Of a stretch of DNA of 24,578 bases, positions 3,845-23,182 are shown one piece after another; the first letter of the stretch is position 1; each line of letters begins with the position of its first letter. This stretch comes from Candidatus Sulfobium sp. (GTDB lineage Bacteria; Nitrospirota; Thermodesulfovibrionia; Thermodesulfovibrionales; UBA6898): NCBI GenBank assembly GCA_037380845.1, contig JARRRI010000073.1, positions 1 to 24,578 on the forward strand, written 5' to 3'. The position numbers were made by a program, and so were the translations under genes. Under the pieces are notes generated by a model. It ran no database searches. It was not told the DNA's origin and saw only the letters and a program-made list of their open reading frames with translations.

Positions 3845-4108
3845 TCAGTCTTCCAACTCCAACTCACGTATCAGGTCTTCTGCAGTCCCGCGTCTGACCC
3901 TCCCTGCCTTCACGTCTTCCAGAGACTTGCGGAGACGAGCCATATATGCCTCATCCTCGGCCTCGATCAGTTCCCTATACCGCGCCTCGCTAATCACCAC
4001 ATACTGAGGCTGATTGTTCTTGATGACGTAGACCGGCCCCTCCTTGAGGGCTTCGTCGACGGCCGATATCCCCTTGCGTTTGATTTCTTGTGCAGCAACT
4101 GTCTTCAT
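3845..4108 (-). CDS. Phd/YefM-family antitoxin
   Basis: MKTVAAQEIKRKG...GPVYVIKNNQPQYVVISEARY; AAGGAG RBS; paired with the RelE-like toxin. Confidence 0.88.
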   Translation of the reverse strand: MKTVAAQEIKRKGISAVDEALKEGPVYVIKNNQPQYVVISEARYRELIEAEDEAYMARLRKSLEDVKAGRVRRGTAEDLIRELELED

Positions 4109-9177: not shown

Positions 9178-9255
9178 TGGCGGGGCGGACGGGGCTCGAA
9201 CCCGCGACCTCCGGCGTGACAGGCCGGCGTTCTAAACCAACTGAACTACCGCCCC
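9178..9255 (-). tRNA. tRNA-Asp (GTC)
   Basis: GGGGCGGTAGTTCAGTTGGTTTAGAACGCCGGCCT-GTC-ACGCCGGAGGTCGCGGGTTCGAGCCCCGTCCGCCCCGCCA; full cloverleaf, encoded CCA. Confidence 0.97.
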
Positions 9256-9439: not shown

Positions 9440-9515
9440 TGGTAGGCGGAACAGGGATCGAACCTGTGACCCCAGCCTTGTAAGGGCTGTGCTCTCCCAG
9501 CTGAGCTATCCGCCC
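9440..9515 (-). tRNA. tRNA-Val (TAC)
   Basis: GGGCGGATAGCTCAGCTGGGAGAGCACAGCCCT-TAC-AAGGCTGGGGTCACAGGTTCGATCCCTGTTCCGCCTACCA. Confidence 0.97.
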
Positions 9516-19077: not shown

Positions 19078-21036
19078 GTGAACAGGCTCGCCGGGGAAAG
19101 GTCTCCATATCTCAGTCACGCCGCGTCCCAGGAAATCGACTGGTATCCGTGGTCTCAGGAGGCATTCGACGAGGCGAAAAAGCAGAACAAGCCTGTATTC
19201 ATGAGCAGCGGCGCCGTATGGTGTCACTGGTGTCATGTAATGGCGAAGGAATGTTTTGAAAACGAAGAGATTGCCCGGATGCTCAATGAGAGTTTCATCA
19301 GCGTGAAGCTTGACAGGGACGAGAGGCCCGACATAGACAAGCGGTATCAACGCGCGGTGGCCGCAATGGGGCAGGGCAGCGGCTGGCCCCTCAGCGTATT
19401 CCTGACCCCCGAGAAGAAACCCTTTTTCGGGGGTACCTACTTCCCTCCGGAGGACCACGTCGGCAGGCCCGGGTTCAAGACGGTGCTCAGGAGCGTCATC
19501 GAATTCTACAGGTCCAGGGGAGAGGAGGTTTCTGAATACGGCGAAAGACTTCTGGATTCCCTGAGACCCGGACCGGGCATGGAGGGGGAAATCCCGGCCT
19601 CGCTCCTCGATGAAGCGGAGAAGGCTGTTATGGGGCAGTTCGACGCCACAAACGGGGGTTTCGGAAAGTCGCCTAAGTTCCCGATGCCGGGGGCCCTGGA
19701 ATTCCTGATGCTCAGGTATTTTTCCGGCCGCGACGCGAAAACCGGGGAGGCGGCAAGAAAGACTCTGGAGGCAATGGCAAAGGGAGGATTCCATGACCAG
19801 CTGGGGGGCGGTTTCCACAGATACTCTGTCGACGAGGCATGGACGGTCCCCCACTTCGAAAAAATGGCGGACGACAACGCCTGGCTTCTGAGAAATTACA
19901 TTTGTGGCTACTTCCTCTTCGAGGACGATTATTTCAGGAGGGTGGCCGAGGGAACGATCGACTTTGTCAAAGAGGTGCTCTCGGACCCCGGGGGAGGGTT
20001 TTACGCCAGCCAGGACGCCGACGTGACAGTGGATGATGAAGGCGGATATTTCATCTGGACCGACGAAGAATTCAGGGGCGTCCTCGACGACGAGGAATAC
20101 AAGGTGTTGTCGCTGCACCTCTTCCACGAAAGAGCGGCCGCCCATCACGATCTGTCGAAAAGGGTCCTCCTGATCGCCACGGATCCGGCCGAGATTGCGG
20201 AGCGGACGGGCATTGAGCCGAGAAGGGTTGCGAAGATTATCAATAGCGGCATGGACAAATTGCTTGAGGAGAGGAACCGCAGACCGCAGCCCTTCGTGGA
20301 CAAGACCTTTTACACTTCCCTGAACGGGATGATGATCTCATCTTTTCTTCTGGCTTACCGCTGTCTCGGCCGTGATGACGTGAAGGGGTTTGCTCTCAGG
20401 AGTCTCGACCGTATACTCGCTGAATACTTCGACGGTGAAAGGCTTCTCCATACTGACGGTGTTACAGCGACACTGGACGACTACGTATATCTTGTCGAGT
20501 CCCTGTTATCGGCCTACGAAGTTACGGGAGACGATTCCTATTCAGCCCGGGCGGCCCGGGCCATGGGATCGTGTATCGGGTCGTTCTGGGACGCCGGTTC
20601 CGGGGGGTTTTTCGATACCGGCGAGGATGTGCTCGGTGTGCGGCTCAAATCGTTTGAGGACATCCCTCATCCGTCTCCAAACGCGCTGGCCGTTGTGCAA
20701 TTGCTGAAGTTGTATCACATGACGGGGAAAGAGAGTTACTTCAGCCTTGCCGAAAAGACACTCAGGGCCTTTTCCCGACAGGCGCGGGAAACAGGCATCC
20801 ATGCAGGATATTATTTCTGCGGCCTGGATGCGTATTACCATATGTTCAAATTGACGCTCGAGACCTCGCCCGGCAGCGACCTGGCGCGCACCGCACTGAA
20901 TTTTTTCATGCCCTATAAAGGAATTGTATACGGGGAAGACAAGAACCTCGTAACCCCTTGTCTCCCCTCGGGAGTTTGCCTCGAACCGGTCGGTGAGGCA
21001 GATGACCTCAGGCAGTTCCTGACGCGCCCGTCTTGA
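19078..21036 (+). CDS. Thioredoxin-domain protein, YyaL/SSP411 (DUF255) family
   Basis: NRLAGERSPYL, WCHWCHVM, DRDERPDID, GWPLSVFLTP, GGGFHRYSVD, PHFEKM. Confidence 0.93.
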   Translation: MNRLAGERSPYLSHAASQEIDWYPWSQEAFDEAKKQNKPVFMSSGAVWCHWCHVMAKECFENEEIARMLNESFISVKLDRDERPDIDKRYQRAVAAMGQGSGWPLSVFLTPEKKPFFGGTYFPPEDHVGRPGFKTVLRSVIEFYRSRGEEVSEYGERLLDSLRPGPGMEGEIPASLLDEAEKAVMGQFDATNGGFGKSPKFPMPGALEFLMLRYFSGRDAKTGEAARKTLEAMAKGGFHDQLGGGFHRYSVDEAWTVPHFEKMADDNAWLLRNYICGYFLFEDDYFRRVAEGTIDFVKEVLSDPGGGFYASQDADVTVDDEGGYFIWTDEEFRGVLDDEEYKVLSLHLFHERAAAHHDLSKRVLLIATDPAEIAERTGIEPRRVAKIINSGMDKLLEERNRRPQPFVDKTFYTSLNGMMISSFLLAYRCLGRDDVKGFALRSLDRILAEYFDGERLLHTDGVTATLDDYVYLVESLLSAYEVTGDDSYSARAARAMGSCIGSFWDAGSGGFFDTGEDVLGVRLKSFEDIPHPSPNALAVVQLLKLYHMTGKESYFSLAEKTLRAFSRQARETGIHAGYYFCGLDAYYHMFKLTLETSPGSDLARTALNFFMPYKGIVYGEDKNLVTPCLPSGVCLEPVGEADDLRQFLTRPS

Positions 21037-21060
21037 CTTTTCCCGCCCTGCTGATAGAAT
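21033..21060 (+). promoter_or_regulatory. sigma70 promoter upstream of the UGA-rich peptide
   Basis: TTGACT-16 bp-TAGAAT with extended TG. Confidence 0.6.
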
Positions 21061-21131
21061 GGAATCGGGTCAATATAAGGGCGGAAAGCGGTTTGTGACC
21101 GCTTTGTTGTCAGGGAAGGAGGTGAAGCAGG

Positions 21132-21299
21132 ATGAAGAAGACAGTGAGCAAAAAGGCTCTTGTCAAGGAGGCCGCTTTCTGGAGCAGCTTCAGGAACGCG
21201 GTTAAAGAAAATCCTGGCAAGATATGCCACAAGTGAAAGAGTTGAAAGAGCTGAAGTCGCCGGTCGGCGACGAAATGAGGGGGGCAGGTGGGGCGTTAA
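21132..21299 (+). CDS. Putative selenocysteine-containing RiPP precursor peptide (up to four in-frame UGA)
   Basis: AAGGAGGTGA RBS. MKKTVSKKALVKEAAFWSSFRNAVKENPGKICHKUKSUKSUSRRSATKUGGQVGR*. UGA at 21234, 21243, 21252 and 21276; first UAA at 21297. The true end may be the 3rd or 4th UGA. Confidence 0.7.
21256..21271 (+). promoter_or_regulatory. SECIS-like hairpin
   Basis: GUCGCC-GGUC-GGCGAC; loop starts 25 nt after UGA1 and 16 nt after UGA2. Confidence 0.6.
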
Positions 21300-21330
21300 T
21301 GGTGATAATTTCCGCCTCATCTGCCCTTTT
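21282..21330 (+). other. Long stem-loop (second SECIS, terminator or stability element)
   Basis: GGGCAGGUGGGGCG pairs with CGCCUCAUCUGCCC (14 bp, 2 G-U); possible apical GGUG; followed by UUUU. Confidence 0.6.
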
Positions 21331-21437
21331 GTATGAAGCGGTGTTTTTGAGGGTCTCACGGCGGGATATGTATCGTCTGTCTTTATGCCGCCATGCCCGG
21401 GTCTTTAGCCGGACATCCGTTCCGGAGTTTTAAAACA

Positions 21438-21499
21438 CCTGGATTCCCGTCCCCGGTCGCCTCTGGCGCTGCCAGAGACGGGTAAACTGCGCGGGAATG
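21438..21499. repeat. REP-like element with nested hairpin insertion
   Basis: cctggattcccg [tccccggtcgcctctggcgctgccagagacgggtaaact] gcgcgggaatg. Confidence 0.6.
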
Positions 21500-21549
21500 T
21501 GGGGACCCTTATATATGAAGCTGCAATATTTCCGATGAGGTGAACAAAG

Positions 21550-22596
21550 TTGTCGACGAACGATTCGCATGATTTTTTTATTCAGTGGCATCTGACCGAC
21601 CGCTGCAACCTCAGGTGCAGGCATTGTTACCAGCAGGGCGGCACGGCGGACGAGATGTCTCTTTCCGAAATCGGGTCAGTCGCCGGCGAGGTGGAGGAAA
21701 CGCTGAAGATCTGGGCAGACGCCTATGACATTTCCTTCACTCCCAGTTTCAATATCACCGGGGGAGAGCCTTTTCTCAGGAAGGATATCTTTGAAATACT
21801 CGCTGAGCTGACGGAGCGGGGATTTGAAATATATCTTCTTTCCAACGGAACGCTGATCGATGGCAAGAAAGCGCGCAGACTGTCGGAACTGGCGACAAAA
21901 GGCGTCCAGATAAGCATGGAGGGACCGGAACACATCCATGACGCAATCAGGGGAAGAGGCAGTTACTCCGCATCGGTGAAAGGGATTTCCCGCCTTCTTG
22001 ATGCAGGGGTGAAGGTCACGATGAATGTTACACTGTCGGGCCTCAATGTGGCTTTTTTCAGGGAGCTTGTCGCACTCGCGTCTTCTCTCGGCGTCCAGAG
22101 GCTCGGCTTTTCGAGACTCGTGCCTTCCGGCAGGGGGGCGGGGCTCCTGAACAGCATGCTGGGAAAGGAAGATGTGCGAAGCGCATATGCAGAAATATTT
22201 TCACTCTCCGCGGGGCAGGTCGAGATCGTTACAGGAGACCCCGTTGCTGCGCAGATGTCTGTTCCGCCCGGTGAGGGTGATGCGGGTGGATTTCCCGGCG
22301 GCGGCTGTGCGGCCGGCGTGTCCGGCCTGACCTTTCTCCCCGACGGTACCATAATCCCGTGCCGGAGGCTGCATGTCCCCGTCGGAAACATTCTGAAGGA
22401 CAGTCTGCGCGAGGTGTGGGCGACTTCCGGCGTGCTGGAGGCGCTGAGGGACAGGAAGAGGTACGGCGGGAAGTGCGGGACCTGCAGCAGGTGGGCGGAC
22501 TGCAGGGGATGCAGGGCCATCGCATATGCATATTCGCAGTCGGGAGGAGGGGAAGACTTCCTTTGCGAGGACCCGCAGTGCTTTATCCGGGACTGA
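21550..22596 (+). CDS. Radical SAM/SPASM domain enzyme, candidate peptide maturase
   Basis: QWHLTDRCNLRCRHCY, TGGEP, HDAIRG; SPASM GCAAG...PCRR...KCGTC..W..CRGCRA...EDPQC. GAGGTGA RBS, TTG start. Confidence 0.92.
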   Translation: MSTNDSHDFFIQWHLTDRCNLRCRHCYQQGGTADEMSLSEIGSVAGEVEETLKIWADAYDISFTPSFNITGGEPFLRKDIFEILAELTERGFEIYLLSNGTLIDGKKARRLSELATKGVQISMEGPEHIHDAIRGRGSYSASVKGISRLLDAGVKVTMNVTLSGLNVAFFRELVALASSLGVQRLGFSRLVPSGRGAGLLNSMLGKEDVRSAYAEIFSLSAGQVEIVTGDPVAAQMSVPPGEGDAGGFPGGGCAAGVSGLTFLPDGTIIPCRRLHVPVGNILKDSLREVWATSGVLEALRDRKRYGGKCGTCSRWADCRGCRAIAYAYSQSGGGEDFLCEDPQCFIRD

Positions 22597-22600
22597 CGCC

Positions 22601-23182
22601 TTGGCGGACCTGCTTGCACTTCTGGCCATCATTGTCTGGCCCGTTGTTCCGCTTTTCTGGATACCCGTTCACGGATTTCCGCAACTGTTCAGAAAACTCG
22701 GCATTCTCTCGTATGTTGTACCCTTCGTACTCTGGCTTCCCGTGGGCTATCTCATTTACCATAACAGGGACTTTCTTCTTCACTATAAGGCCGGCCTGCC
22801 GTTCTGGCTGAACATTGCCGGATTTGTTTTTCTTGGAGCGGGCTGTGGACTTCAACTCTGGACAGGCAAGCTCCTCGGACTCTGGGGACTGATGGGCCTG
22901 CCGGAGATCTCGGGCAGGGTCAGGAGCAGGCTGGTGGCCGACGGGGCCTTTGCGGTGGTCAGGCATCCGACCTATCTGTCCCACACCCTGATATTTTCCG
23001 GCGTATTCCTTATAACGGGGGTTTTAGCGGTGGGAGCCATCACAGTGGCCGACTTCATCGTGATCAACACCTTAATCATCCCCCTCGAAGAAAAGGAACT
23101 GGCCGCACGGTTTGACGGCGAATATGAAGAATACAGGAAGCGGGTACCCAGGTTCTTCCCGGGGCTGCACCGCAAACATTAA
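22601..23182 (+). CDS. Isoprenylcysteine carboxyl methyltransferase (ICMT/PEMT)-family membrane protein
   Basis: Hydrophobic helices; LVADGAFAVVRHPTY, EEKELAARF..EYEEYRKRVPRF; TTG 4 nt after the rSAM stop. Confidence 0.85.
   Translation: MADLLALLAIIVWPVVPLFWIPVHGFPQLFRKLGILSYVVPFVLWLPVGYLIYHNRDFLLHYKAGLPFWLNIAGFVFLGAGCGLQLWTGKLLGLWGLMGLPEISGRVRSRLVADGAFAVVRHPTYLSHTLIFSGVFLITGVLAVGAITVADFIVINTLIIPLEEKELAARFDGEYEEYRKRVPRFFPGLHRKH

Follow-up and report, generated by a model that had tools for sequence, protein, structure and literature searches.

A predicted two-selenocysteine precursor peptide and its co-inherited radical SAM/SPASM enzyme in the Thermodesulfovibrionales

The described system closest to the one reported here is SbtA/SbtM of Geobacter and Desulfobacteria, in which, according to the sections of the report consulted, a peptide carrying selenocysteine (Sec) in a GGUG motif is accompanied by a radical S-adenosylmethionine (SAM) enzyme with a SPASM domain that forms a thio(seleno)oxazole (PMC9204691). 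The UxxU double-Sec and UXX-star families of bacteria (e.g. NF041114, NF041211, and NF041115) are tabled in the consulted part of a 2026 review, and closely spaced Sec therefore has precedent (PMC13188914). In addition, the radical SAM enzymes PapB and Tte1186 take Sec in place of Cys, with the selenium binding to an auxiliary cluster before the Se-C bond is formed, as described in the part of the study seen (PMC10177961). Here we analysed a stretch of 24,578 nucleotides (the window) from Candidatus Sulfobium sp. (assembly GCA_037380845.1, contig JARRRI010000073.1), in which an earlier note, made from the letters alone, had proposed a small gene for a Sec-rich peptide upstream of a radical SAM/SPASM enzyme. 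We consider it likely that the locus encodes a precursor peptide with two Sec, served by a single selenocysteine insertion sequence (SECIS) in the 3' untranslated region (UTR), together with a dedicated radical SAM/SPASM maturase.

In outline the locus is similar to SbtA/SbtM, which likewise has a short precursor with Sec at UGA codons (probably at least two, in the sections consulted), a SECIS, and an adjacent three-cluster radical SAM/SPASM enzyme (PMC9204691). Furthermore, Gly precedes the second Sec in 21 of 29 loci, recalling the Gly-Sec unit of SbtA. However, the enzyme scored only 141.1 bits against the SbtM model TIGR04082 (cut-off 350) and aligned to positions 199-503 of its 516, the N-terminal ~190 residues of SbtM being absent. 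The Sec context was HK-U-K[GS]-U-KS instead of GGUG, and the hosts belong to a different phylum, the Nitrospirota. The peptide gave no meaningful hit against NCBIfam (E≤10) or Pfam, the match to SkfF in NCBIfam being due to chance. With both hidden Markov model (HMM) comparisons and the motif speaking against membership, the locus resembles SbtA/SbtM in outline and is not a member of that family, as the earlier note had surmised. With UXX-star selenoproteins it has in common a Sec three residues from the C-terminus and a SECIS behind the stop, and with UxxU families two Sec spaced U-x-x-U, but the consulted part of the review describes no pairing of these families with a radical SAM enzyme (PMC13188914). 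The three models named above gave no match to the peptide at E≤10. A description of this peptide family was not found in the open literature, although selenoproteome supplements, which lay outside the search, could list it; nor did the literature searched contain another natural Sec peptide made with a radical SAM enzyme besides SbtA/SbtM.

The peptide gene, at positions 21132..21254 of the forward strand (40 codons and a stop), was found in 110 of the 317 genomes searched from the order. It is preceded at 21033..21060 (+) by a promoter-like TTGACT-16 nt-TAGAAT that also has a TG upstream and is put forward as a consensus match only, agreeing at 10 of 12 positions; two sites of this type were found against 0.3 expected in shuffled sequences. 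A Shine-Dalgarno sequence, AAGGAGGTGA, can be read directly at 21116..21125 (+), and its core GGAGGTG ends 7 nt before the ATG at 21132. Translation from this ATG with TGA read as Sec (U) gives MKKTVSKKALVKEAAFWSSFRNAVKENPGKICHKUKSUKSUSRRSATKUGGQVGR*, with in-frame TGAs at codons 35, 38, 41, and 49 (21234, 21243, 21252, and 21276) and the first stop of another kind, a TAA, at 21297. In all of these features the sequence reads as the earlier note had stated. Both neighbours, a DUF255 gene (stop at 21034-21036) and the radical SAM gene (stop at 22594-22596), terminate at TGA; genome-wide recoding is therefore excluded, again in agreement with the note. Two overlapping open reading frames (ORFs), at 20913-21359 (-) and 21224-21433 (+), matched no Pfam family and were taken as spurious.

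In the leader (residues 1-31), E13 and W17 are invariant and the PGK hinge is conserved. The leader is followed in the window by the core C32-H-K-U35-K-S-U38-K-S40, which across loci takes the form C-[HR]-K-U-[KS]-[GS]-U-K-S. Positions E13, W17, C32, K34, U35, U38, K39, and S40 were invariant, and the length was 40 residues, or 37 in one clade. As read from the sequence, the predicted product is a 40-residue lysine-rich peptide with two Sec, ending C-H-K-U-K-S-U-K-S.

The conservation of the UGA codons was examined in loci collected through orthologues of the enzyme (52-68% identity) from relatives and from public genome records, with the DNA upstream translated. The public records with orthologues were nearly all from Nitrospirota (Thermodesulfovibrionales, 'Ca. 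Sulfobium', and Dissulfurispiraceae metagenome-assembled genomes (MAGs)). After five duplicates had been dropped, 34 distinct peptide loci were obtained, on which the codon and hairpin counts are based. Codon 35 (21234..21236, +) was TGA in all 34, and codon 38 (21243..21245, +) was TGA in 33, with TAA in the remaining locus (L070). By contrast, codon 41 (21252..21254, +) was TGA in 21 loci, TAA in 7, TAG in 2, GAA followed by TAG in 3, and TCA followed by TAG in 1, so that TAA or TAG stood there directly or one codon later in 13 of 34. Since codon 41 drifts among the stops while codons 35 and 38 stay TGA, it is the ordinary stop codon. The fourth TGA was present in the window only among the loci read, its place being taken by R or P in the closest relatives. 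In a survey of 317 Thermodesulfovibrionales genomes, in which the peptide was sought with a profile and the enzyme as an orthologue at E≤1e-90, exactly two in-frame TGAs were found in 111 of the 114 peptide matches and zero TGAs in none. A pattern of this kind in a small ORF is far more than would be expected by chance. None of the 34 loci had TAA or TAG at the first UGA, and the other observations that the earlier note had named as contrary to its proposal were likewise absent.

Next to this, the variation between loci was compared by codon position, using pairwise differences among the 29 loci with the 40-codon form. Before the first UGA, the differences per site at positions 1, 2, and 3 were 0.218, 0.212, and 0.428; in codons 36, 37, 39, and 40 they were 0.103, 0.017, and 0.287. 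Third-position differences thus exceed those at the first and second positions on both sides, suggesting that coding continues beyond the first UGA.

Protein databases hold the gene in shortened form, as the earlier note had anticipated in expecting gene callers to truncate it at 34 aa. A word-indexed search returned 17 clusters, named 'hypothetical protein' or without a name, each covering 85% of the query, and all 17 therefore end at the first UGA. When 1.84 billion representatives were searched exhaustively with a profile, 113 hits came up, almost all of them ending at profile position 34; a few long repetitive proteins were chance matches. The only small hit aligned past that position was P0143, a public protein of 49 aa, in which three TGAs of an orthologue are read as Trp (..CHKWKSWKSWSCRSATRH) and which was probably called under a code with TGA as Trp. 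A Cys variant of the peptide was found neither in the 17 database clusters nor in the 113 representative clusters nor in the 114 order-wide matches, in contrast to the natural substrates of thioether-forming radical SAM maturases, which contain Cys.

Directly behind the third UGA, separated by one base, lies a hairpin of the SECIS type, GUCGCC-GGUC-GGCGAC (21256..21271, +), with a 6-bp stem and a GGUC loop. A script found a hairpin of 6-7 bp in every one of the 34 loci. In 31 of them G-G-U-C was part of the loop or bordered it, whereas L032 had AGUU, L060 GGGC, and L068 GGC; one further hairpin (L055) had a weak A/U-rich stem. The hairpin began 10-11 nt after the second UGA (9 in two loci), 19-20 nt after the first (18 in two), and 0-2 nt past position 41, the last even in loci with an extra codon before the stop, indicating that its spacing is set from the UGAs rather than from the stop. 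In an alignment fitted to the model (36 matches, 28 distinct rows), and hence leaning towards structure, 99.4% of cells were paired and compensatory changes occurred in 3 of the 6 pairs (17 cells), with a covariation score that was reached in 0 of 500 shuffles.

The SECIS of E. coli fdhF has a GGUC apical loop and works ~11 nt from its UGA. The whole window genome (3.18 Mb, 104 contigs, 100% complete as judged by marker genes) was scanned for in-frame TGAs with a GGUC-loop hairpin behind them. This recovered FdhA, the alpha subunit of formate dehydrogenase (C29:35904-38633; TIGR01591, 888.6 bits, cut-off 666), where 12 nt separate the Sec codon from GUGGCC-GGUCU-GGCCAC. Because a hairpin of the same type stands behind the FdhA Sec codon of the same genome, we read the hairpin of the peptide gene as a SECIS. 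The genome also contains selA (620 bits), selB (331.6 bits), selD, which has its own in-frame TGA with a candidate hairpin 24 nt past it, and a tRNA-SeC gene (selC, C31:4083-4180). The four genes for which the earlier note had advised looking are therefore all present and, together with the TGA kept at codons 35 and 38, they bear out its proposal of a small Sec-encoding gene. As a discriminator between genomes selB was uninformative, having been found in 293 of 317; the six genomes that had the peptide but no selB match were 70-89% complete. The same scan also yielded a 145-residue frame at G000:C89:53-487 (-), locus L126 (..HLPHA-U-STMNLF..), in which a 7-bp hairpin with a GGUC loop begins 12 nt behind an in-frame TGA; this frame had no hit in NCBIfam and may be a further unannotated selenoprotein.

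These results bear on how much of the frame is translated. The earlier note had counted three or four Sec, which would mean a 55-residue peptide ending at the TAA at 21297, and the window does have an in-frame TGA at all four places. Such a product is hardly tenable: in the 13 loci mentioned above, TAA or TAG stands at position 41 or TAG comes directly after it, the hairpin begins right behind position 41, and the closest relatives have no TGA at the fourth place. Moreover, one-base indels in the loop (GGTC against GGTCA or GGTCT) would shift the frame; the conserved stretch past the stop, SCRSG/SRRSA if translated, is the RNA hairpin and not peptide. Two Sec are thus retained from that proposal. 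At the other extreme, translation might end at the first UGA to give a 34-residue peptide with Cys only, the downstream stretch being some other RNA element. That every public gene call ends at the first UGA would agree with this, as would the lack of an Rfam SECIS match; we nevertheless judge it very unlikely, considering that codons 35 and 38 remain TGA whereas the real stops at position 41 drift, that triplet-periodic variation persists past the first UGA, and that the hairpin is like that of FdhA in form and spacing in a genome with the full Sec machinery. The arrangement favoured here is one in which a single SECIS would serve two UGAs and the third, too near the hairpin, would terminate translation.

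The radical SAM/SPASM enzyme, of 348 aa with a TTG start, is encoded at 21550..22596 (+). It scored 81.2 bits with Radical_SAM (PF04055) and 34.6 bits with SPASM (PF13186), both over the cut-offs. The motif C19-x3-C23-x2-C26 and Cys 253, 271, 309, 312, 318, 321, and 344 were invariant in sets of 26 and 36 sequences, and the seven C-terminal Cys, set against the canonical spacing, fit a complete SPASM domain that holds two auxiliary clusters. A RiPP recognition element (RRE; RiPP, a peptide made by the ribosome and modified after translation), or PqqD domain, is common but not universal among radical SAM/SPASM peptide maturases. As had been noted earlier, the enzyme has no obvious RRE: Pfam gave no hit to such a leader-binding domain, and the radical SAM core begins at residue 15 of 348. 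The solved structures nearest by sequence were SkfB, PqqE, anSME, and CteB, and those nearest by fold to an AlphaFold2 model (predicted local distance difference test (pLDDT) 79, predicted template modelling score 0.83) were SkfB, SuiB, and anSME, with TM-scores up to 0.74; the list further included PqqE and CteB, and also MoaA and viperin. Although SkfB, SuiB, CteB, and anSME are the nearest by sequence and fold, identity was 15-22%; anSME is similar in also having ~350 aa and no RRE. According to the predicted fold, the structural neighbours are thus mainly peptide or protein maturases.

The presence lists of peptide and enzyme in the 317 genomes were compared by hand. The peptide profile gave its 114 matches in 110 genomes and the enzyme orthologue was found in 106; both genes were present in 102, the peptide only in 8, the enzyme only in 4, and neither in 203. 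They therefore co-occurred in 102 of the 114 genomes with either one, a count that overstates the statistical weight because related genomes are not independent. In 82 of the 102 the genes were adjacent on the same strand, and the other neighbours of the pair varied among loci. Several of the discordant genomes were cases of contig ends (G002, G003, and G067) or MAGs 66-89% complete. That the genes co-occur even when unlinked is a strong sign of a functional tie, and the pairing with a radical SAM/SPASM enzyme put forward in the earlier note is upheld.

The physical side of this tie was modelled as a complex of the enzyme and the peptide, each with its own alignment, with three 4Fe-4S clusters and SAM. 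The model scored 0.87 and the best of three controls 0.03; the runs agreed in at least 84% of contacts, and the pLDDT of the partner was at least 76. In calibration, 116 of 157 solved complexes attained the mark, as did 2 of 215 mismatched pairs; these counts are only rough here because own alignments and riding ligands were used. In the model, leader residues 8-17 lie on enzyme residues 283-300, W55, and Y59, including invariant or near-invariant positions, and the peptide extends with residues 29-34 to enzyme residues 229-231 and 246-254, C253 among them. On this model, the enzyme would bind the leader helix.

Several points weigh against a two-Sec precursor with a dedicated maturase. Sec insertion is deduced from nucleotide sequence, which is how the peptide is known here. 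The first UGA lies 19-20 nt from the hairpin as against 12 nt in FdhA, which may affect its decoding efficiency; an E-value scan of 21100-21560 with Rfam gave no SECIS match. A few peptide copies carry TAA at a Sec position (L070/G074 and G093), which may represent decay. The peptide gene was present in two or three copies in some genomes (G073 and G074), and in G074, to which L070 belongs, it is the enzyme-adjacent copy that has TAA at the second Sec codon, the other copy having two TGAs. The genes were unlinked in 20 of the 102 genomes, 15 of them in family f12, being on different contigs or 19-420 kb apart, and a conserved protease or exporter was not seen among the locus neighbours. The best HMM scores of the enzyme were with the tetrapyrrole enzyme AhbD (168 bits), followed by ACGX (162.7) and NirJ2 (162), and then GeoRSP (155.6) and SbtM, all far under cut-off, and its public names include 'AdoMet-dependent heme synthase' besides 'radical SAM protein'. 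Finally, the modelled peptide ends at residue 34 and lacks the Sec core, and the model carried ligands, which the calibration did not.

Some of these points would suit a different arrangement, in which the peptide is a stand-alone two-Sec selenoprotein (metal- or selenium-binding, or redox, of the UXX-star type), and the enzyme makes a tetrapyrrole or another cofactor, the two sharing regulation or pathway only. The unlinked genomes, the HMM ranking with AhbD and NirJ2 on top, the lack of an RRE, and the unlinked peptide copies beside selD/YedF and beside selB described below would all be in keeping with it, as would the proposal, in the consulted part of the review, that UxxU/UXX-star selenoproteins act as metal ligands (PMC13188914). 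We regard this arrangement as improbable. AhbD and NirJ resemble the enzyme in length, but its scores with AhbD and NirJ2 are only a third of the equivalog cut-offs (500 each), and unlike them it is co-inherited with the peptide gene, even where the two are unlinked, and mostly adjacent to it amid variable neighbours. The structural neighbours are mainly peptide maturases, and the complex model, far above its controls, places the predicted contact on invariant enzyme residues. A further set of enzyme paralogues at ~33% identity, e.g. C62:10501-11514, is present separately in the window genome.

Between the two genes lies a hairpin with a U run resembling an intrinsic terminator (21278..21334, +). 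The fold of 21225-21345 had z = -4.4, and the terminator-like hairpin scored -30 kcal/mol. A strict script found such an element in 18 of 34 loci, and more were seen by eye; two loci have only 20-26 nt, without a terminator, between the genes. A simple terminator scan missed the element of the window, probably on account of an apical part larger than the 3-8-base loop limit of that scan, and the Rfam matches on this hairpin, miRNA-like, were due to chance. The presence of such elements suggests that transcripts of the peptide gene frequently stop short of the enzyme gene. The succession of UGA, UGA, and stop, SECIS hairpin, terminator-like hairpin, and enzyme gene could also be that of a selenium-sensing leader, in which UGA read-through, set by the supply of Sec-tRNA, decides on the terminator and thereby controls the enzyme, the peptide itself being functionless. 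The strong conservation of the peptide (E13, W17, C32, K34, K39, and S40 invariant) is against it; moreover, the peptide gene stands alone in 20 genomes, two loci lack the terminator, and the leader is predicted to be bound by the enzyme. Such a leader therefore appears very improbable.

As for transcription, metatranscriptome contigs from four runs of three studies (sediment and soil) covered 21116-21279 at 85-99% likeness, and one of them linked the end of the peptide to the start of the enzyme, with 37 other letters between. At this likeness the contigs derive from relatives; they are silent on expression level, and RNA libraries may contain DNA, all of which counts against using them in support of the two-Sec peptide. 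They are a weak hint of transcription. Stretches without RNA cover, and depth figures, carry no information on expression level. DNA runs from marsh and salt marsh contained the stretch, from which no claim on habitat is drawn.

Taken together, genome sequence shows the gene with its two conserved UGAs and its stop, as well as the hairpin, the Sec machinery, and the joint inheritance of gene and enzyme, and from these we infer Sec insertion, the reaction, and the role of the product as follows. SelB would insert Sec at both UGAs by means of the single SECIS hairpin just behind the stop. The hairpin, one base from the third UGA, must already be unwound when that codon is reached, so that the third UGA would terminate translation. 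The enzyme would then bind the amphipathic leader helix directly, with no need of an RRE, and the Cys/Sec core would be threaded towards an auxiliary Fe-S cluster and altered by radical chemistry. Our guess is that a Se-C bond (selenoether) cross-links the peptide intramolecularly, or that the Gly/Ser-Sec unit is oxidised or heterocyclised in the manner of SbtM. A selenoether-forming mechanism is plausible, since PapB and Tte1186 accept Sec at an auxiliary cluster in the part of the study seen (PMC10177961).

The remaining features of the locus concern possible accessory genes and substrates. An ICMT/PEMT-like membrane methyltransferase gene (ICMT, isoprenylcysteine carboxyl methyltransferase) lies at 22601..23182 (+), with an inferred start codon, ~5 nt past the stop of the radical SAM gene, and is directly downstream of the enzyme in 11 of the 34 distinct loci. 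It gave weak, sub-cut-off hits to ICMT and to the methanethiol S-methyltransferase MddA, and could be an accessory tailoring enzyme methylating the peptide C-terminus or a selenol. The upstream DUF255/thioredoxin gene was rejected as part of the system; it adjoins the peptide in only 8 of 34 loci. In five loci without an adjacent peptide (L059, L063, L067, L071, and L075), a small, conserved protein with four Cys (..C-x-N-x-D-C-x-L-R-K-x-K-x-C-x-G-F-E-G-C-P-G-F-K-G-K) is encoded divergently from the radical SAM orthologue, and may be either a second substrate or mere synteny. The window genome encodes its own 4-Cys protein elsewhere (C9:48649-48825, or L127:1150-1326), next to a gene for a helix-turn-helix membrane protein that is RodZ-like by eye. 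In L052/L029, the DNA upstream of the enzyme encodes on the opposite strand a repeat protein rich in Gly, Met, Pro, and Tyr (GYGYGMGPGMMGPG...), and the peptide gene is on another contig (G037:C13). An Rfam scan of the window at gathering thresholds gave only two tRNAs, at 9181-9255 and 9443-9515 (-).

A few stray copies of the peptide gene had neighbours of their own. One unlinked copy (L130, G196:C26:59500-67000, ~3864-3983 (-)) adjoins selD (367 bits) and YedF (208.5 bits), another (G204:C228:2218-2337) is beside selB by coordinates, and a third (L132) is near a transporter of the TsuA/YeeE type. Such copies are hints that tie the peptide to selenium handling, anecdotal in that they comprise four contexts by Pfam/NCBIfam, with G204 by coordinates. 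Instead of being a RiPP of the antibiotic type, the peptide may give rise to a cofactor that works inside the cell and is obligately based on selenium, or may serve as a carrier of selenium or metal, an idea that we offer as speculative and, on present grounds, unlikely. The radical SAM enzyme would in that case fix the S/Se/Se triad of C-x-x-U-x-x-U, much as PQQ (pyrroloquinoline quinone) and mycofactocin are made from peptides, and these anaerobes would employ the product in energy metabolism based on sulfur or selenium. It would fit the invariance of the core across more than 100 species without any Cys form found, and likewise the lack of a conserved protease or exporter and the stray copies beside selD/yedF and selB.

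If the two-Sec precursor with its maturase is correct, it would constitute a second Sec-containing peptide family of radical SAM enzymes, unrelated to SbtA/SbtM and present in roughly one in three genomes of a single order of anaerobes of the sulfur cycle. The failure to find a Cys form speaks for a requirement for selenium chemistry as such. Public annotation leaves the gene invisible or truncated and often gives the enzyme the wrong name of heme synthase, so that selenoprotein and RiPP catalogues alike overlook it. The locus would also be a compact natural case of two UGAs with one SECIS in the 3' UTR and a third UGA as the stop, a layout that would make the distance rule of SelB decoding directly testable.

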